Made by a program: the position numbers and the translations under genes. From NCBI GenBank assembly GCA_964624225.1, contig CAZUZJ010000001.1:1-52080 (forward strand): DNA of 52,080 nt. The letters run 5' to 3'. Positions 1 to 24,524 of the stretch are shown here, piece after piece. This DNA comes from an uncultured Desulfobulbia bacterium (GTDB lineage Bacteria; Desulfobacterota; Desulfobulbia; Desulfobulbales; SURF-16). Each line of letters opens with the position of its first letter. The first letter of the stretch is position 1. Below the pieces are notes generated by a model. It was not told the origin of the DNA. It saw nothing but the letters and a program-made list of their open reading frames with translations, and ran no database searches.

Positions 1-59
1 TCAACCCTAACTTCGCTGCCGATGTCAGGGGTTCGGTTGGTGCAGATACGTATCAGTAA
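1..59 (+). CDS. 3' end of a gene entering from upstream (...NPNFAADVRGSVGADTYQ*); function unknown, probably structural
   Basis: Frame 3 is open from the window edge to TAA at 57-59. No start codon lies in the window. Confidence 0.3.
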   Translation, partial: NPNFAADVRGSVGADTYQ

Positions 60-100
60 TCGCAGCTGGTGCAACAACGGCTACGGTTAACACAACCGCA

Positions 101-292
101 GTGACCGCTAACAGTGAAATCCTCATAACCGAAGATCAAAGCCTTGGCGTGGCGCTCGGCGTTACGTGCAATACATCTATTAGTTCGCCACCTGTGGTTT
201 CATCACGCGTTGCAGGAACCAGTTTCAGCGTGATTATTAGCTCAGCCCTCGCAACGAATCCGGTGTGCTATGACTATTCGATCATTAATTAA
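101..292 (+). CDS. Small hypothetical protein resembling the C-terminal domain of the neighbouring fibre protein
   Basis: ORF-track ORF with GTG start. The frame is open from nt 11, so an ATC at 59-61 overlapping the upstream TAA is an alternative start. The two-Cys, Ser/Thr-rich pattern resembles the last ~60 aa of the 521-2923 product. No clear RBS. Confidence 0.3.
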   Translation: MTANSEILITEDQSLGVALGVTCNTSISSPPVVSSRVAGTSFSVIISSALATNPVCYDYSIIN

Positions 293-7980: not shown

Positions 7981-10458
7981 ATGGGATACCTGGAAGATGT
8001 AAGGCAAGCACTGTTGAATCGCTGCCCGGCGATGCTGTACGACTGGCTCCCTGATGGACGGCAAGAGGGGCGGTATTACGTCTGCGCTGACATTACGGGG
8101 GGCAGAGGAAATTCACTCAAGGTCAATCTTAAAACTGGCCGCTGGGAGGACTACTCGCAGGGCCACCAGCCTGGCACCTACGGCTCCGACCTAGTATCAC
8201 TCTATGCCGCAACCAAGGGCAAGGAATACAAAGAGGCCCTCCACGAACTCGCGGCGATGCTGGACATCAAGCCTGAGAAGCTCAAGCGCTCCGACCCGAC
8301 GGAGTGGCAGGTTATAACCCCAGTCCCGCGCAGCGCCTATGAAGTCGGGACGGACGGCCTGCCCAAACTGCCGGATGTCCCGCGCGCTAAGGGAAACGCT
8401 GGCTACTGGTCCTACGTTGACCGAGACGGGGAGCTTCTGTGCTTCCGATACCGCATGGAGAGCGGAGAGGTTAACGGGCACGGGAAACGCAAAAAGGAGG
8501 TCAAGCCGCTGACCTACTGCCGGAACAAGCACAGCGGGGAGTGCGCATGGATCACCCGCGACCTGCCGTCGCCCATGCCGCTCTACAACCTTTTCGACCT
8601 TGCGAACGTTCAGCCGAAGCGCGTGTTGGTCGTCGAGGGCGAGTCGTGCGCCTCGTCAGGGCAGCGCGTTCTTCCCAATTGGACGGTTACGACATGGTCG
8701 GGCGGCGTCAGGCGCGTGCGGATGGCCGACTGGTCGCCGCTTAAAGTCCTACCGCGCGAGACGATGGTCGTACTCTGGCCGGACAACGACCACGCCGGAC
8801 AGGAAGCTATGAACGACGTCATTGAGATGCTGGATCGGCCAGTTGATATTGTGAGACCCGACCAAGCATGGCCCGCTGGGTACGACATCGCAGACTTGGT
8901 TGAGCACGGCTGGGACACCGCCAAAATCGAGACCTTCATCGCCCAGAGCACGCACCGCGTGGAGCCCGAGCCACGAAAGGAACGCCCGGCGGTCGAACTC
9001 ACCGGCAAAGACTACTACGAGCACATGAAGGCGCTGTATCCCGCGATCCGAGACTCTGAGAGCCCGCTCTATGAGTCGGCTGGGGGCATCATCGTCCACA
9101 TCAAGCGGGACATATTCGGGAACCAGTACGTCAACCCCGTGGGGCCATCAGAACTCCAGGCGTGGGCGGCACGATACCTCGACTGCTACGGTTACACCGC
9201 ACACGGGCGGTCCCCGTGCCACATCTCGGACCCCCTTGCGAATGCTCTGGTCTACAACTGCAACGGCCAGCTCATGCCGCTCGTTCGTTACGCGGATCAC
9301 CCAATCGTCACGGCATCCGGCGATATCATTAACCGGCCCGGCTACAATCCGGTTGCCAAGTGCTACCTCTCAATCCCGGATGGCTACGACCCCGAAATGC
9401 CGCTCGACCAAGCAATCGACCTGATCATGGACCTGCTGGCAGACTTCCCTTTTGAAAACAAGGATGCTGATCTGGCCGCTGCAGTAGCCTATCCCTTGAC
9501 CGCGATACTCCGGGACAGGATCGCGGGGCCGGTGCCGCTTTTCAAATTCGAGGCTCCCGAGCACGGCACTGGCAAGAGCCTGCTCTGCGAAGTCCTGACG
9601 CACATATTCTCCACGCGGCCTTCGATATACGGGATGCCGAGCGAGGAAGAGGAAACGAGAAAGCAAATCACTTCGGCACTAATCAGGATGCCCCCCGTCA
9701 TCATCTGGGACAATGTTTACAAGATGGAAAGCGGATACCTGAAGAAGGCCCTAAGCGAGCCGGAGTGGACGGACCGGCTTCTGGGACGCAACAGGGAGAT
9801 AACCATCCCAATCCGCACGGTCTGGGCGGCCACGGTGAATAACCCGGTGATGTCCCGTGAGCTGCTCCGGCGGTCGGTGAGGGTCAGGATCAACGCCCAT
9901 GTCGAGAACCCGGAGGATCGGTCGGGGTGGAGGCACGATCTCCCTCATTACGCCAAGGAGAACCGGGCGGTATTGCTAAGCGCTTGGGTGGCCCTGGCGC
10001 GGGCCGGGCTTGAAGAGAGCACGAACGGCTTGCCGCGAATGGGAAGGTACGAGTCTTGGGTTAAAACCGTAGGGTCATCACTCGCAGCGGGCGGTTTTTC
10101 TGGCTTCCTCTCAACCCTTGCCGAGGACCGGAAGCTCTGCGAGGACCCAAAAACGGCGGGGATTAACGCCTTCGTTTCGGCCTGGGCGCAAGACTTCGGG
10201 AACCAGACTGTCACCGTCAAGCAGTTGGCCGAGCTAGCATCCCGGGTTGACGCGCTCAGCATCAGACGGCGAAAGGACGGAGCGGTGTCTGCCGAATCAA
10301 TGGGGTGGCTGCTGAGCACACTCAGGGGCAAGGTGATTGAAGGGCTACTAATTGACGGGCCGTACAAAAACGAAAGCGGACGCTCGTACCGGCTGGCTGG
10401 CGACATCGAAGAGCAGCAGAGAGATTTCAAGATGGAGGCATCTGGCGATGAATTCTAG
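7981..10458 (+). CDS. Bifunctional Toprim primase / P-loop helicase (P4-alpha / D5-like replication protein)
   Basis: GGTGG RBS. The Toprim motifs are VLVVEGESCA and LWPDNDHAGQEA. The Walker A motif is APEHGTGKSLL. Confidence 0.85.
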   Translation: MGYLEDVRQALLNRCPAMLYDWLPDGRQEGRYYVCADITGGRGNSLKVNLKTGRWEDYSQGHQPGTYGSDLVSLYAATKGKEYKEALHELAAMLDIKPEKLKRSDPTEWQVITPVPRSAYEVGTDGLPKLPDVPRAKGNAGYWSYVDRDGELLCFRYRMESGEVNGHGKRKKEVKPLTYCRNKHSGECAWITRDLPSPMPLYNLFDLANVQPKRVLVVEGESCASSGQRVLPNWTVTTWSGGVRRVRMADWSPLKVLPRETMVVLWPDNDHAGQEAMNDVIEMLDRPVDIVRPDQAWPAGYDIADLVEHGWDTAKIETFIAQSTHRVEPEPRKERPAVELTGKDYYEHMKALYPAIRDSESPLYESAGGIIVHIKRDIFGNQYVNPVGPSELQAWAARYLDCYGYTAHGRSPCHISDPLANALVYNCNGQLMPLVRYADHPIVTASGDIINRPGYNPVAKCYLSIPDGYDPEMPLDQAIDLIMDLLADFPFENKDADLAAAVAYPLTAILRDRIAGPVPLFKFEAPEHGTGKSLLCEVLTHIFSTRPSIYGMPSEEEETRKQITSALIRMPPVIIWDNVYKMESGYLKKALSEPEWTDRLLGRNREITIPIRTVWAATVNNPVMSRELLRRSVRVRINAHVENPEDRSGWRHDLPHYAKENRAVLLSAWVALARAGLEESTNGLPRMGRYESWVKTVGSSLAAGGFSGFLSTLAEDRKLCEDPKTAGINAFVSAWAQDFGNQTVTVKQLAELASRVDALSIRRRKDGAVSAESMGWLLSTLRGKVIEGLLIDGPYKNESGRSYRLAGDIEEQQRDFKMEASGDEF

Positions 10459-10461
10459 ATT

Positions 10462-10665
10462 GAAAACCGTCAAAACCTTCATTAATAGCCGCAATCCTGA
10501 CGGTTCTACCGGTTCGATACGGTTCTACATATTAAATTATAAATTAAAAATATAAATGAGTATGGAAAACCGTCAAAACTGGACAAACCGTCAGGATGTA
10601 AATTTTACATAGTTTTATGCGGCTGCATTTTTTGGTGTTGAAGAAAACCGACAGAACCTTCAGGA
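10462..10665. other. Putative replication origin: iterons flanking an AT-rich unwinding element
   Basis: GAAAACCGTCAAAAC occurs at 10462-10476 and 10565-10579. AACCGTCAGGA occurs at 10586-10596 and inverted at 10496-10506. CGGTTCTAC occurs at 10501 and 10520, and GAAAACCGACAGAAC at 10643. The AT-rich stretch is 10529-10560. Confidence 0.5.
10597..10609. promoter_or_regulatory. TGTAA-N3-TTACA palindrome (exact copy)
   Basis: tgtaaattttaca, in the origin-proximal intergenic region. Confidence 0.5.
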
Positions 10666-10698
10666 GGCAGGGTTGTTGGCGAGGATGTTATGGAGCGC

Positions 10699-10729
10699 GA
10701 ATTCTTCGCAATTATTCCCTTGACAAACC
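10699..10729. repeat. Target-site duplication (10699-10706, GAATTCTT) plus left inverted repeat (10707-10729)
   Basis: IRL is cgcaattattcccttgacaaacc. It matches the reverse complement of 13252-13274 at 19 of 23 positions. Confidence 0.75.
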
Positions 10730-10769
10730 AAGCAGTCTATGAGATGATTAAGGCGTAAAAGGAAACGCT

Positions 10770-11702
10770 ATGAATCTTATAGACCTAGCCCAACAATTCA
10801 GCAACGAGCGTGGCGCCAGAGCTTACCTCGAAAATCTCCTATGGCCCGATGGGCCGATCTGCCCAAAGTGCGGATTGGTCAATGAAGCCTACAAGCTCCA
10901 ACCTCGGAAGACTTCAAAGAGCCCCGTGCGCGAGGGAGTGTACAAGTGCAAAGGATGCGGCAAGCAGTTCACCGTGACCGTGAACACGATTTTCGAGGAT
11001 TCGCATATTCCGCTTCATAAGTGGATGATGGCAATTCACCTGATGAACGCCAGCAAAAAGGGAATGTCTGCGCATCAGATTCACCGCATGTTGGGCTTAG
11101 GCTATCGCGCCGCATGGTTCATGTGTCACCGCATTCGCTACGCTATGAATGCGGGGCCAGATGCCCCTAAGCTTAACGGCACAATCGAAGCTGATGAAAC
11201 CTATGTTGGCGGCAAGGTGAGAGGCAAAGGCTGTTATGTGGCCCGGCAGAAGAAAGCCCCGGTGGTGACTCTTGTCGAACGCAATGGAAAAGCCAGGTCG
11301 TTTCACTTTGAGCAAGTATGCGCCAGCAATCTGCGGCCTGTAGTCAAGGAACACATTGAGCAAGGCGCAAGCCTGATGACTGATGACTCGGGGTTGTACG
11401 CCAGCATGCGAGGCCACTTCAGCTCTCACGATGTAGTAAAGCATTCTCTTGGCGAATATGCGAGGCATGAAGTAGGCAAGACTGTTCACACCAACACAGT
11501 AGAAGGATTTTTCTCCATCCTGAAACGTGGAATTTTTGGGACTTACCATCATATCGGCAAGCAGCATCTTCATCGGTACCTGGACGAGTTTGACTTTCGC
11601 TACAATGCGAGAGATACTTCGGACGGTGAGCGATCTGAATTGGCTGTTAAAGGAGTAGTTGGCAAGCGACTTATGTACCGGGACTCATCCGGAACCGCAT
11701 AG
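10770..11702 (+). CDS. IS1595-family (ISXO2-like) DDE transposase with an N-terminal zinc ribbon
   Basis: CPKCG...YKCKGCGKQFTVTVNTIFEDSHIPLHKWMMAIHLM is the zinc-ribbon/HTH region. IEADETYVGGK is a signature of the IS1595 DDE domain. Confidence 0.85.
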   Translation: MNLIDLAQQFSNERGARAYLENLLWPDGPICPKCGLVNEAYKLQPRKTSKSPVREGVYKCKGCGKQFTVTVNTIFEDSHIPLHKWMMAIHLMNASKKGMSAHQIHRMLGLGYRAAWFMCHRIRYAMNAGPDAPKLNGTIEADETYVGGKVRGKGCYVARQKKAPVVTLVERNGKARSFHFEQVCASNLRPVVKEHIEQGASLMTDDSGLYASMRGHFSSHDVVKHSLGEYARHEVGKTVHTNTVEGFFSILKRGIFGTYHHIGKQHLHRYLDEFDFRYNARDTSDGERSELAVKGVVGKRLMYRDSSGTA

Positions 11703-11725
11703 TCGGCAAGTTTGACGGGTCTCTT

Positions 11726-12511
11726 ATGAATCGGCAACGTGAAGAAATCCCGTTCACAGTCAAGCTCGAAAGTGACGAGCCACTCAGTGTCAGGATAATC
11801 GCGGAAACACTGAGGGACATCGAAAATATGCTTTCTGACATTGAAAAGCATATCTTCAACACTTCCGACGCAAGAGCCCAATGGAAGTGGCCTGACGAAG
11901 CGGAACTTGAAGTGGTAGCGACTGTCAACGGCCTGGACCGAGCCCAACTAAGCCGAATTGTCGAAGAGGCAGAGAGGGGATTTGCAGAAGCTAAAGAGGC
12001 AAAAGGCAGCGTAAACTGGCCGTCTGGCTTTGGTCCCGCCGCGCAGCACTCCGCACGAAAGATTCTAGGCAGGCTTGAAAAACTTAACTCGATTATCGTT
12101 CGCGCAGAGGATCGCAGGCCCGTTACGATAACCACTGTGGAGATAGGGAAAAGAGTAACTGGAAAGCTGATCTCTCGACGGTGCGCCTATTCCTCCGTAG
12201 AGGGCAGGCTGGAACTTATATCCCATCGTGGGAAGCTCCGTGCGGCTGTGAAGGAAAACGTGACGGATTGTGTTGTTCAATGTACGTTTTCTGACGAACT
12301 GCTGGACGTGATCAAAGAACTCTTTGACAAAAGAGTAGTAGTCGAAGGCCTCGTAAATTACCGAGAAAATGGTGAGCCGATCTCTATAACGAAGGTAAGC
12401 AGCGTTACAGAGCGAAAACATGGCGCACCTCTTAGAGACTTCATCGGGTCCGCTCCAGACATAACCGGCGGCGTAAGCAGTGATGAGTTTATCGCCCGGC
12501 TACGGGGCTAG
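11726..12511 (+). CDS. Hypothetical 261-aa cargo protein (possible antitoxin or sensor partner of the PIN protein)
   Basis: Starts 23 nt after the transposase stop and lies inside the IRs. The C-terminal FIGSAPDITGGVSSDEFIARLRG resembles the tails of PIN-associated antitoxins. No other motif recognised. Confidence 0.65.
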   Translation: MNRQREEIPFTVKLESDEPLSVRIIAETLRDIENMLSDIEKHIFNTSDARAQWKWPDEAELEVVATVNGLDRAQLSRIVEEAERGFAEAKEAKGSVNWPSGFGPAAQHSARKILGRLEKLNSIIVRAEDRRPVTITTVEIGKRVTGKLISRRCAYSSVEGRLELISHRGKLRAAVKENVTDCVVQCTFSDELLDVIKELFDKRVVVEGLVNYRENGEPISITKVSSVTERKHGAPLRDFIGSAPDITGGVSSDEFIARLRG

Positions 12512-12558
12512 CAAGCGGCTGTCCCAAGCTGCACTTCCGATTCTTTTTGCGAGATAAT

Positions 12559-13077
12559 ATGAGCGAAGGGCCACAAATCCAGTACTGGGATGCTTGCCTG
12601 TTTATATCGCTTCTCATAAAGGAAAAAGATCGGGCGACAACCATTGAGAAACTTCTGGACAGGCAGGAGAGAGGTCACTTAGTAATTACCATATCGACGC
12701 TAGTTATTGCCGAAGTTCGCCCGGATGAATTAAACCCTGACCTCGACCCGATGCAGTATAAGCGCATTCAGGAGCTTTTTAACTCCGACAGACTAGATTA
12801 TCGAGCCGTGACACCCGCTATTGCCGAACGGGCTCGGGAGATCGGCGTTCAGCATCCTAAGCTACTGCCGCCCGATTGCATCCATATCGCGACGGCGCTG
12901 GCGGCAAAAGCGGCTGTTCTGTTTACGTTTGATGGCGTCGGACCCAAAAGGCGCCGTCCTGGAGAAATGGTCCGGTTTAACGGACTATTTGGAAATCCTC
13001 CACTTAAGATATGTGCGCCATATGTCGAGGAGGGACCACTGTTTGATGCGCAAAAAGCCCAAGAAACTGAAGGTTGA
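12559..13077 (+). CDS. PIN-domain nuclease (VapC-like)
   Basis: The acidic residues fit the PIN pattern: YWDACLF (Asp), VIAEVR (Glu), PPDCIHIATA (Asp) and FTFDG (Asp). TTG at 12547 is an alternative start. Confidence 0.75.
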   Translation: MSEGPQIQYWDACLFISLLIKEKDRATTIEKLLDRQERGHLVITISTLVIAEVRPDELNPDLDPMQYKRIQELFNSDRLDYRAVTPAIAERAREIGVQHPKLLPPDCIHIATALAAKAAVLFTFDGVGPKRRRPGEMVRFNGLFGNPPLKICAPYVEEGPLFDAQKAQETEG

Positions 13078-13210
13078 TAGAATCCTAAAAGAATTCCAGA
13101 AATCTGAGCAGTCATCCTCTCATCGCCGCGACGCCTTCAAGATCGAAGGTGATTTCGAGGACGCCGTGCGGAAGATCGCCGGAGCCAAGCCCAAACCGAA
13201 AGGGCGCTAA
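13046..13210 (+). CDS. Possible 54-aa basic protein overlapping the PIN gene 3' end
   Basis: Internal ATG of ORF 12821-13210, translating MRKKPKKLKVDRILKEF...AGAKPKPKGR. It ends 42 nt before IRR. No clear RBS. Confidence 0.3.
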   Translation: MRKKPKKLKVDRILKEFQKSEQSSSHRRDAFKIEGDFEDAVRKIAGAKPKPKGR

Positions 13211-13251
13211 GTTCACGCCTGCCCGTCAACGCTCTCACCATCCTACCACAA

Positions 13252-13282
13252 GGTTTGTCAAAGGCATAATTCCTGAATTCTT
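13252..13282. repeat. Right inverted repeat (13252-13274) plus target-site duplication (13275-13282, GAATTCTT)
   Basis: ggtttgtcaaaggcataattcct is followed directly by gaattctt. Confidence 0.75.
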
Positions 13283-13357: not shown

Positions 13358-13576
13358 CTAGGTACATATGTGGCGTTCCCTTACCCTTTTTTCAAATGTC
13401 ACATAGTCACACCCAAACTCGCGTTCTACCGGATTTTTCTGGCTGACTCTGTGTATGCGGGTGAGATTACCCCTTCGGTCCTCTTCATACCAGATAATAG
13501 CGAAAGGTACTCCCAGTTTTTTTGCTAGCTTCAGGCCGACAGGGGCCGGCTTGAAATTGGAGCCATCGCCGTGACA
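13358..13576 (-). pseudogene. Start-less 72-codon open frame continuing the 13531-14106 gene in another frame (frameshifted gene or remnant)
   Basis: Hand translation: CHGDGSNFKPAPVGLKLAKKLGVPFAIIWYEEDRRGNLTRIHRVSQKNPVEREFGCDYVTFEKRVRERHICT*. Protein-like composition, but no ATG/GTG/TTG near its 5' end. It overlaps the end of the upstream ORF by 46 nt. Confidence 0.3.
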
Positions 13577-14106
13577 TCAATGCTTTCGTCGGCGACAGGG
13601 GCTAATTTGATGTCTGAGCAGAAGATTTCGACTTCATTTGAGTTACCGACGGATTCTTTACACTTAGTTCTTTCCTCGCGCAGCTGGCTTTTGAAATCCT
13701 TTGAAACCGACTTGATGAATCCAGTGACACTCAAGGCTTCCTTAGCTTTGGCTTCTTCAAGTTTCTGGCTGAGCCGCTCGGGGCTTAGCGCTCGCCGGAG
13801 AAGCTGGGAACGAGCGGAGATTCTCCAAGTGATGCCTTCGGGTACAAATTTCGGCCTGCCGCGATTTTCCTTCCCGACGGGTAGGAAATTCTTCTCGTTG
13901 GCCAGAAATTCTCCCAGCAGCCATAGCGCGCGAATCTGAACCTCCGTGGCGTAGTCCACCACTTCTTTCCCGGCCTTGACCCGCTGGGCATAAACTCTGG
14001 CCGCCGCAGCTAGGTCTGAGATTCGCTTAGCGTCTTGAATTGTTTTGGCTTGGAAAAGAAGCTTAGAAGCTTGGTCTATTTTCGCGAGGACGGCATCATC
14101 GACCAT
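13531..14106 (-). CDS. Hypothetical early protein; its helical N-domain resembles those fused to phage DNA methylases, and its C-end looks like a decayed methylase motif
   Basis: IQDAKRISDLAAAARVYAQRVKAGKEVVDYATEVQIRALWLLGEFL is the helical domain. EIFCSDIKLAPVADESIDVTAMAP aligns by eye with ...GD...LPDESVDLIxTDPPY, but the DPPY motif is lost. Confidence 0.6.
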   Translation of the reverse strand: MVDDAVLAKIDQASKLLFQAKTIQDAKRISDLAAAARVYAQRVKAGKEVVDYATEVQIRALWLLGEFLANEKNFLPVGKENRGRPKFVPEGITWRISARSQLLRRALSPERLSQKLEEAKAKEALSVTGFIKSVSKDFKSQLREERTKCKESVGNSNEVEIFCSDIKLAPVADESIDVTAMAPISSRPLSA

Positions 14107-22406: not shown

Positions 22407-23201
22407 CTAGGCTTTCAGCAGCCCGGAACCTGCCTTCAGTATCTGGTCCGCCGCATGGAATATTTTCTGTGCTGATTTTTCCGGTATTTCAGAATGCCCG
22501 ATCCACGCCTGGATATATCCTCTCGATTCGTCGGCCCCTGGCAAACCCAGCGATTCGCCAACGATCATCGCCACGGCCTCGGCCTCGGCCTCCTGCAATG
22601 TCCTGGGCGTCGCGTCTCCGTCCAACTGCTGGCCTTTCTCGCAGTGCCCCAGCAGGATATGGGCCATTTCGTGAAATAAGGTTTTGTAGGGATGCTGGGC
22701 CAGAGGATTAATCGCCAGCTTGCGGCCCGGCTCGGCGTATCCCTGGCAGTTGCCGTTGGTCAACTCGAACGGCGCGCGCGTGATATTCAGCGCCTGCAAA
22801 GCGGCCTGTTCGTTCCACGTCGGCAGGGGCTCTGGCTGGTACTCCTGGCCTTCGGTTTGCGCCAGCACAAACCAGTTATTCCGATACACAAAGCGGGTGT
22901 ACGTGTACTCGGTCTCCGTTTCCCGGCCTTGCTCGTCCTTCTCGGTTTTGCGAATCTTCTTTGTGATCGGCATGCAAAGGGCTATGGCTTTTTGGCCCTT
23001 CATAACGTGTCGCCCGAGTTCCTTCCAGCGGTTAAAGCTCGCAATCGGCCCTATTGGAATCTGTCTCATCTCGCATTCAACCATGGCTAGCAGTTGATTC
23101 GCGGTCGAATACCGCCAGAAAGTCGAGTACGCCTTGCTGATCTTGCCTGGCTCATTCGTTGCTGACTTAAGCAACTCATTCCACTTAACTTCGCTTTCCA
23201 T
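22407..23201 (-). CDS. ArdC-like protein: ssDNA-binding N-domain plus HExxH zincin domain (anti-restriction type)
   Basis: FNRWKELGRHVMKGQKAIAL is an ArdC N-domain signature. HEMAHILLGH is the metalloprotease motif. GGAGAA RBS. Confidence 0.7.
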   Translation of the reverse strand: MESEVKWNELLKSATNEPGKISKAYSTFWRYSTANQLLAMVECEMRQIPIGPIASFNRWKELGRHVMKGQKAIALCMPITKKIRKTEKDEQGRETETEYTYTRFVYRNNWFVLAQTEGQEYQPEPLPTWNEQAALQALNITRAPFELTNGNCQGYAEPGRKLAINPLAQHPYKTLFHEMAHILLGHCEKGQQLDGDATPRTLQEAEAEAVAMIVGESLGLPGADESRGYIQAWIGHSEIPEKSAQKIFHAADQILKAGSGLLKA

Positions 23202-23288
23202 TTCGTTTTCTCCTGCCCGGTGACTTCCGGGCTAGTGTAGGTCACTACCCTATTCCGCGTGCGGATGCGCGGCCCCCAAATTCTGCTG

Positions 23289-23453
23289 TCAGTTATCGCT
23301 GCCGAAGCCCGCAACCACTAAGGCGACGGCTTCCTGAATGCCTAGTCCAGCGTGGAACATCCGGGCGTAGTTGATGCCCCGCTCATTCAATCGCATTTTG
23401 TAGGTGTTCCAGAGCCGGCTCTCAACTGCTTGCAGCCAGGTTTGGTAGCTCAT
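23289..23453 (-). CDS. Hypothetical 54-aa protein
   Basis: ATG at 23453 forms an ATGA overlap with the stop of 23450-23659. Confidence 0.5.
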   Translation of the reverse strand: MSYQTWLQAVESRLWNTYKMRLNERGINYARMFHAGLGIQEAVALVVAGFGSDN

Positions 23454-23659
23454 ATCGTCCTCCGCTTCTTGCCAGCCCATAATTCCTTACGAATCTGGTT
23501 CTCAGCGTTAATGAGTATCTCGATTGCCTGAAGACGCGCCGTAACAGCTTTGGGTATGTCGTCAAGCAGTCGGGGCGCGCGCCAAACATATTGGATTGCG
23601 TGGCTGAGCTTTGCTAATATCTCGTTCGCCTCATTTTCCGTCATCGTTGCCGTCTCCAT
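23450..23659 (-). CDS. First gene of the leftward early operon (69 aa, helical)
   Basis: GAGGATGAGAG precedes the ATG. A promoter lies directly upstream. Confidence 0.6.
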   Translation of the reverse strand: METATMTENEANEILAKLSHAIQYVWRAPRLLDDIPKAVTARLQAIEILINAENQIRKELWAGKKRRTI

Positions 23660-23678
23660 CTCTCATCCTCACGGCTAG

Positions 23679-23707
23679 ATCATAGTTAATATCGTTGCGT
23701 TTGTCAA
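23679..23707 (-). promoter_or_regulatory. Sigma70-like early leftward promoter
   Basis: The minus strand reads TTGACA-17 nt-TATGAT, 19 nt upstream of the ATG at 23659. Confidence 0.55.
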
Positions 23708-23853
23708 GGAAAATCTGCACGCGAACCGAATTTTTTTAGCTCCAGCATCTTTCCCTCCGTAAGCCGATATATCGAGCGGTTTCATTGCCAAAGTCAAGAA
23801 AATTTTTATCCTTTATTTTCAGTGGTTTGTAAATCGGCGGTTTTGGCCCGGAG

Positions 23854-23963
23854 TGTAGAAATTACATGGCCGGTACGTAAAAATTACCTTCTTGGCAGCA
23901 AGTTGTTGATAATGCACCTGTTGGTCGGCTGGTAAAAAATACGCGGAAGATGTAAAAATTGCA
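23854..23963. promoter_or_regulatory. Cluster of three TGTAA-N3-TTACA-type palindromes
   Basis: tgtagaaattaca at 23854-23866, cgtaaaaattacc at 23876-23888 (22 bp apart), and tgtaaaaattgca at 23951-23963. Confidence 0.5.
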
Positions 23964-24524
23964 TAGCTGCGAGTTCGCCTGGATGGACAGGGTGGAAGTG
24001 GCCAGGGATGAGCCCGTGGAATCCGGAGATTCGGGCGGACTGTGTTAAGGGGGCTGGCGCGGGGGGGAAGTTGGGGTTGCGGGTAGTTGTGGCCTTCAAG
24101 TTGAGTTCCATCTGGGCGAGCCGCTGTGAGCCAGGAAGGGATCCGGGGAAGCCATGGTCACGGGAAAGATGGCGGGCGGCCGGTGTTTGTATCATCTTAA
24201 GTGATTCTTGCTTCGCGGCAGCGTTGGTTAGTTGTTGTCAGGCGGAGTTTGGGCGGTTAAGTAGAGAAAGGGCGCGCCAGCGCCAGGAAGCGGGTTGAAC
24301 TAGTGCCTCTTAGTTCATGGGTTGAGCTGCCTCTATGCGAGCCAAGGCCGTCCGGAAGGGTGCGGGAAACGTGGCGCCGGGGGCAGTATGTGCAATCGGT
24401 TAAGCTCTATCCGTGGCAACTGCCGGAAGCACGGAAGAGGCGCGGGGAAACCATCATGCATGAGAGGATGGCGCGCCAGCGCCCGTCCCGCGTCGCGCCG
24501 GCCAATCGGGCTGGTGAGCGCGCG

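Follow-up and report, generated by a model that had tools for sequence, protein, structure and literature searches.

The 52,080-bp window analysed here is the whole of contig C1 of a 2.6-Mb Desulfobulbaceae metagenome-assembled genome (MAG), and it carries, as cargo of a transposable element, a gene pair encoding an uncharacterised protein (here called X) and a PIN-domain nuclease. The RpoB protein of this MAG shares 98% identity with that of a Thermodesulfobacteriota/Desulfobulbaceae MAG. Phage genes span the contig from end to end and include those for a terminase large subunit, a tail spike, a virion protein, a RecE-like exonuclease, a primase-helicase, and an anti-restriction protein. Because such genes extend across the whole contig, we conclude from its phage-like gene content that it is a phage or prophage; no terminal repeat was detected on it. 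Four co-directional open reading frames (ORFs), encoding a transposase, X, the PIN protein, and a tiny basic protein, lie in a stretch of low GC content (0.51 within the element, in the 10-14 kb region, versus ≈0.59 in the flanks). An IS1595-family element of 2568 bp (10707-13274) encloses all four (Table 1). The three ORFs that follow the transposase gene had all been placed correctly in an initial annotation of this DNA.

The transposase matched the profiles DDE_Tnp_IS1595 (PF12762; 1e-36) and Zn_ribbon_IS1595 (PF12760; 1e-11) and the NCBIfam model NF033547 (transpos_IS1595; 9e-59). The element shows each of the characters by which IS1595-family members are recognised, namely a zinc-ribbon DDE transposase, terminal inverted repeats (IRs), an 8-bp duplication, and passenger genes between the ends. 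On the basis of the transposase family matches, the IRs with their perfect 8-bp duplication, the related elements described below, and the drop in GC content, we identify 10707-13274 as an intact IS1595-family transporter insertion sequence (tIS) within a phage genome. The initial annotation had called the genes transposon cargo, and this context, including its location in a phage-like contig, was borne out. No second copy of the element was found in the MAG. Joining the flanks restores no ORF, and the insertion is therefore intergenic. An empty insertion site was not found in public contigs, in which a joined-flank 20-mer gave chance 21-nt matches only. The IS1595 tIS concept (Siguier, Gagnevin and Chandler, 2009, as cited in PMC3129680) covers elements with a single zinc-ribbon DDE transposase, short IRs, an 8-bp duplication, and passenger genes. 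The present element shares these features and differs in that it sits in a phage genome.

The arrangement of the four genes suggests that transposase, X, PIN, and the tiny ORF form a single operon read from a predicted left-end promoter, because the gene gaps are short or negative (23 nt between transposase and X, 47 nt between X and PIN, and -32 nt between PIN and the tiny ORF) and a promoter-like site is found in the left IR (IRL). This site (10720-10748; TTGACA-17-TG-GATGAT) has an extended -10 element and agrees at 10 of 12 positions, and its -35-like hexamer TTGACA (10720-10725) sits within IRL.

The PIN protein matched PF01850 over residues 11-125 and, at 45.8 bits (E = 1.1e-11), clearly exceeded the profile cut-off of 23.6. 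The four acidic positions that it had been said to keep are indeed aligned in its relatives: E52, D106, and D125 do not vary across alignments that bring in relatives from nine loci, and D11, part of a YWD motif, is kept in every full-length PIN member. The Ser/Thr pair S46/T47 is also conserved. We regard D11, E52, D106, and D125 as putative catalytic residues, and their spacing (41/54/19) resembles that of VapC toxins. Members of this PIN subfamily carry a C-terminal extension with a conserved GNPPLxI..P motif; in the PIN protein of the window it comprises 45 residues. In a comparison of the PIN profile with the Protein Data Bank (PDB), a single weak VapC match (E = 0.03) was the sole solved sequence relative; de novo repeat proteins that also matched were rejected as spurious.

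Partner X is as large and as devoid of recognised motifs as the initial annotation had stated. Neither the single sequence nor a 75-sequence profile gave a meaningful match in Pfam, NCBIfam, PADLOC, PHROG, or PDB sequences. A faint match to PDC-M63B (PADLOC; E = 0.022) was at chance level, was not reproduced in relatives, and was rejected. An exhaustive HMMER search with X yielded 801 cluster representatives at E ≤ 1e-3, nearly all of 255-275 residues; a profile word search with the X alignment returned 13 proteins only. Two AlphaFold2 (AF2) runs gave overall predicted local distance difference test (pLDDT) scores of ≈66 (65.6 and, in the second run with 17 sequences, 65.8). The N-terminal 130 residues were predicted to form a beta-alpha-beta-beta-alpha arrangement plus one helix and one strand. 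Residues 153-229 reached pLDDT values of 80-89 with the topology beta1-3, helix, beta4-5, the arrangement of the five-strand OB barrel, whose helix links strands 3 and 4. When the model was compared with the PDB by Foldseek, nearly all of the top 50 matches were nucleic-acid-binding OB domains (best E = 1.5e-3, probability 1.0), among them the RecG wedge, the LysRS and AspRS anticodon-binding domains, ExoVII, Stn1/Ten1, and SSB. An OB fold at residues 152-230, in the middle part that had been described as OB-like, is therefore supported at the level of structural models, and nucleic-acid binding by this domain is predicted.

The tail that had been called antitoxin-like is present, and in the family alignment residues 231-261 are the best-conserved region of X (2.07 bits per column across 75 sequences) and G241, P244, and R260 are retained in 97%, 85%, and 93% of the sequences, respectively. 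Compared with BFVD, the X model m4b5cd9937a8f gave structural matches (E = 3e-8 to 1e-7 over 270-305 columns) to three uncharacterised phage proteins: Q6NE06 (Leptospira phage LE1), A0A8S5T657, and one 'DUF6575 domain-containing protein'. Because these matches are full-length, the two-domain architecture of X may also occur in phages.

A member of the same PIN subfamily lies directly downstream of X in 25/25 loci with downstream DNA (metagenomic and genomic, with 22 different X sequences), and the two genes overlap by 4-14 nt in most of them. Among 401 genomes sampled across the phylum, 7 contain X, and strong PIN-subfamily matches (141-242 bits) occur only in 5, those with a strong X; the next best match scored 59 bits. 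We conclude that X and PIN constitute an obligate two-gene module, and the co-occurrence on which the initial annotation had made its reading depend was found in both directions. Identity between clades is 28-30% for X and 31-37% for PIN, and relative to the 67%-related element at locus L014 both genes show nonsynonymous divergence (dN) of 0.19-0.23 with saturated synonymous divergence (dS); by these sequence comparisons, X and PIN diverge in step. A distant X-like protein whose OB part matched at E = 8e-7 is encoded directly after a type I HsdS-like gene at locus L013 (G151:C145, 1120-2079), on a contig that ends before any downstream partner.

The association of X-PIN with IS1595 elements is recurrent. 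An IS1595 transposase gene lies directly upstream of X in 11 loci, with every major X clade represented, and no transposase is present in ≈10 other X-PIN loci for which 1 kb or more of upstream DNA is available. On the X tree, copies inside an IS are intermingled with IS-free ones, and at least five state changes are required; the module has therefore often been stranded without its transposase or recaptured. The order transposase-X-PIN and related ends are shared by four further elements (L009, L010, L011, and L014). Ends of the form '13 nt + TTGACAAAC' bracket the three genes in L009, L010, and L011, and L014 has such a sequence at its right end. The L010 element is flanked by its own 8-bp duplication, AAAAAAAT. 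L014 also has an extra 89-residue gene (2434-2703; MKVYLISYDLDKPGQDY), without a Pfam match, between its tiny ORF and its right IR.

Among transposases of the phylum sample, those nearest to the one in the window (46-55% identity) have the same ATTATnnACTTGACAAAC left end and come with different cargo or none. The alternatives found in the same position are an AAA_21/AAA_15 ATPase accompanied by a Toprim-like gene, a C5 DNA methylase, a SEC-C/TraB-like protein, and both membrane and unknown proteins. As judged from these gene contents, the IS1595 lineage has a swappable cargo slot that is enriched in conflict-type genes, with PIN pairs, AbiE-like ATPases, and methylases among its contents.

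The tiny basic ORF had been counted as a part of the PIN module, and its distribution does not agree with this assignment. The ORF is preceded by its own GGAGG Shine-Dalgarno sequence, is predicted to be translationally coupled to PIN, and is kept in L014 (42% identity, dN/dS 0.34). The motif M(K/R)KK...F(D/E)(D/E)A(V/L)..(I/L)..PKPK is common to small ORFs after PIN in 7/10 IS-borne loci, was not found in a small ORF after PIN in any IS-free X-PIN locus, and appears in two related IS1595 elements with cargo other than X-PIN. Because the ORF is absent from IS-free X-PIN loci and present in elements with other cargo, its distribution indicates that it is a component of the transposon backbone and not of the PIN module; roles as an antitoxin or as a third module member were rejected on the same ground. 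The tiny protein may be a small DNA-binding regulator. The module proposed in the initial annotation thus stands as far as the gene pair, the PIN site, the OB fold, and the tail are concerned, and it loses its third gene.

Table 1. Coordinates of the IS1595-family element, its genes and protein domains, and loci with other cargo. Positions are those of the window unless a locus is named; res, residues.
Feature	Position	Strand	Basis or remark
Left target-site duplication, 8 bp, GAATTCTT	10699..10706	.	Same octamer directly outside both IRs
Left terminal inverted repeat (IRL), CGCAATTATTCCCTTGACAAACC	10707..10729	+	20/23 nt complementary to 13252-13274
IS1595-family transposase, 310 aa, N-terminal zinc ribbon and DDE domain	10770..11702	+	Profile matches
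X, 261-aa uncharacterised PIN partner	11726..12511	+	ORF; four-part layout
X, N-terminal alpha/beta domain	res 6-129	+	Predicted structure
X, flexible linker, low confidence	res 130-151	+	Predicted structure
X, OB fold	res 152-230 (nt 12179-12415)	+	AF2 and Foldseek
X, conserved C-terminal tail	res 231-261 (nt 12416-12508)	+	Alignment conservation
PIN-domain nuclease, 172 aa from ATG (alternative TTG 12547)	12559..13077	+	PF01850 match
Tiny basic ORF, 54 aa (12 K and 6 R)	13046..13210	+	32-nt overlap with PIN 3' end
Right terminal inverted repeat (IRR)	13252..13274	-	Also matches right end of 67%-related L014 element
Right target-site duplication, GAATTCTT	13275..13282	.	Perfect copy of left octamer
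Loci with other cargo in the same IS1595 slot	L025 (G373:C22), L028, L031, L033, L035, L036		

We favour, with a probability of about 55%, the interpretation that X-PIN acts in addiction or abortive infection as a VapBC-like pair whose antitoxin is large and non-canonical, and that it is carried as cargo of a tIS. From the findings above we infer toxicity, neutralisation by X, a role for the tail, and a biological benefit, as follows. PIN would be a Mg2+-dependent ribonuclease toxin, and X would be a large antitoxin that keeps it inactive. The X tail, with G241, P244, and the near-invariant R260, would likely be placed in the acidic active-site groove of PIN, and the OB domain would bind nucleic acid, which could be an operator or mRNA in autoregulation or else the RNA substrate. 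Loss of the element or of its expression, or a block of translation such as an infecting phage may impose, would lead to decay or displacement of X, and the freed PIN would cleave RNA and arrest the cell. In this way both the transposon and its carrier replicon, in this case a phage or prophage, would be more likely to be kept: the host would pay for the loss of either one. An abortive-infection role would also be possible.

Resemblance to the VapBC and FitAB systems supports this VapBC-like interpretation. The PIN protein has the four acidic residues, and its partner gene is directly upstream, co-directional, usually overlapping, and always present together with it in the loci and genomes described above. 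The pair is patchy in distribution and linked to mobile elements, and X has a conserved C-terminal segment with an Arg that recalls the toxin-binding tails of VapB and FitA. X differs from these antitoxins in its length of 261 residues and in its combination of an alpha/beta domain with an OB fold, and the PIN protein differs from the VapBC and FitAB toxins in its 45-residue C-terminal extension.

Several points weigh against a VapBC-like pair. X is mostly folded and has no ribbon-helix-helix (RHH), AbrB, Phd/YefM, or helix-turn-helix domain, and neither X nor any of 75 relatives matched a Pfam or NCBIfam antitoxin model; for this reason, X may be a subunit for substrate recognition or sensing and not an inhibitor. 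Overall AF2 confidence in X is modest (pLDDT 66), and its N-terminal domain is ill-defined. X-PIN lacks a clear promoter of its own, with only a 9/12 promoter-like site at 11590-11618, and appears, from gene spacing, to be co-transcribed with the transposase. The placement of the tail in the PIN groove is an idea drawn from conservation and from analogy with VapBC and FitAB complexes, and both toxicity and its neutralisation by X are predictions. Moreover, PIN domains can also cleave DNA, as in flap nucleases.

An anti-phage defence system that acts by abortive infection is an unlikely alternative, yet the one that survives best. X would sense phage nucleic acid or protein through its OB or N-terminal domain and then release or activate PIN; a phage that carried the module would use it to keep competitors out. 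Such a proposal overlaps with toxin-antitoxin (TA) function and differs from it in the trigger. The large, multi-domain partner is reminiscent of sensor-type antitoxins, and the genomic neighbourhoods point in the same direction. X-PIN adjoins restriction-modification genes at two loci, a Type ISP restriction enzyme at L003 and an MTase-Mrr fusion at L015, and an integrase island is also among its neighbours; the distant X-like gene of L013 stands beside a type I HsdS gene; and conflict cargo (the AAA_21/AAA_15 ATPase with its Toprim-like gene, and the C5 methylase) travels in the same IS lineage. Together with the patchy spread of X (7/401 genomes), such neighbours are typical of TA or defence modules. 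However, no PADLOC-DB 2.0 model matched the X or PIN protein of the window, and no family recurred in the 75 X relatives. Likewise, tblastn with X found no relative among 50,697 phage and 72,556 plasmid records, and patterns of its close clade found none in the searched genome contigs or viral (IMG/VR) contigs. A defence role of X-PIN is thus a possibility suggested by gene context.

It is also conceivable, and rather doubtful, that X-PIN is a two-subunit nuclease in which X is an RNA-binding specificity subunit, for example for tRNA, that presents or shields the substrate by means of its OB fold of anticodon-binding type, and PIN is the catalytic subunit. Regulation would then act on the substrate and not on the enzyme. 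In structure, the OB domain comes closest to nucleic-acid-binding OB folds (the anticodon-binding domains of LysRS and AspRS, the RecG wedge, ExoVII, and SSB), and one of the 75 X family members touches PF01336 (E = 0.003). In addition, X is conserved as strongly as PIN, unlike fast-evolving disordered antitoxins, which also tells against a VapBC-like pair. These structural matches have modest E-values (at least 1.5e-3), however, and conservation peaks in the tail, beyond the OB fold, which suits protein-protein contact better than RNA binding. The upstream position of X and the gene overlap are, moreover, the classic antitoxin-toxin layout.

A more unusual and still more speculative version, which we consider improbable, makes X an RNA-recognising gatekeeper. 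In models of this kind the OB domain would bind a specific tRNA or mRNA element and shield it or hand it to PIN, which the tail would tether. The pair would then represent a new, substrate-gated class of PIN systems, spread between chromosomes and phages by IS1595 elements together with other conflict cassettes and providing a phage with an exclusion weapon.

The least likely rival, to which we give very little credence in view of the swappable cargo and of the X-PIN pairs, about half of the total, that lack a nearby transposase, is an accessory role in transposition, in which an OB single-stranded DNA binder and a flap-type nuclease would aid IS1595 end processing or gap repair: the predicted common operon and the recurrent linkage with transposases and related ends in every major X clade (11 loci) would fit such a role, but the nearest transposases share this IRL and have either very different cargo or none at all, and most IS1595 elements transpose without genes of the X-PIN type.

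For the VapBC-like interpretation of X-PIN, the closest analogy is to the TA pairs that are integral to Tn3-family transposons. Those transposons carry TA pairs, including PIN and PIN_3 toxins, beside their transposition genes (Lima-Mendez et al., 2020; PMC7157771), and the TA modules are thought to secure stable transposon invasion (PMC7157771). The systems differ in that Tn3 elements are replicative and have a resolvase, whereas the element here is a small IS1595 element, and in that the antitoxins of the Tn3 pairs are canonical (RHH_6, Phd, AbrB), whereas X belongs to a new partner family. The OB domain of X shares its topology with the tRNA_anti-codon OB folds (PF01336; N-domains of LysRS and AspRS, RecG wedge, and large subunit of ExoVII); sequence similarity to them is at noise level, and in X it lies between an unrelated N-terminal domain and the conserved tail. 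In the literature searched, we found no description of X-PIN cargo, of the tiny backbone ORF, or of an OB-fold PIN partner. Thus, the kinds of system involved, PIN TA modules and IS1595 transporter elements, are known, and the partner family and the package as a whole are undescribed in that literature.

The surroundings of the insertion have features of their own. The insertion point lies just beyond origin-like GAAAACCGTCAAAAC repeats that come after the primase gene. The interval 10459-10700, which directly follows the primase-helicase gene (7981-10458), contains three GAAAACCGTCAAAAC-like 20-mers (at 10462, 10565, and 10643); together with a 21-nt inverted repeat (10494-10514 / 10577-10597), they surround an AT-rich stretch. 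This arrangement looks like an iteron-type origin, beside which the IS would have landed. On the other side of the element, the minus strand contains a 191-residue ORF (13531-14106) followed by a start-less frame of 72 codons (~13367-13582) that reads as a continuation of the gene (LKLAKKLGVPFAIIWYEEDRRGNLTRIH); minus-strand 13358-14106 may therefore be a frameshifted gene beside the IS insertion site. Farther away, a 264-residue protein encoded on the minus strand (22407-23201) matched a PHROG anti-restriction family (1.4e-18), and a second GC dip (0.50 at 23001-24000) adjoins its gene.

PIN toxins are the largest prokaryotic toxin family, and to our knowledge their known partners are small DNA-binding antitoxins. 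The X family is widespread (≈800 sequence clusters), has no name, domain model, or structure, and is strictly paired with one PIN subfamily. If X is an antitoxin, the known antitoxin repertoire would be widened; if it is a sensor or a substrate gate, the mechanism would be new. Insertion sequences are regarded as uncommon in phage genomes, and here one member of an IS1595 transporter lineage that moves conflict cassettes, and that X-PIN marks, has moved into a phage genome. The module is found with this IS1595 lineage in many environmental bacteria.

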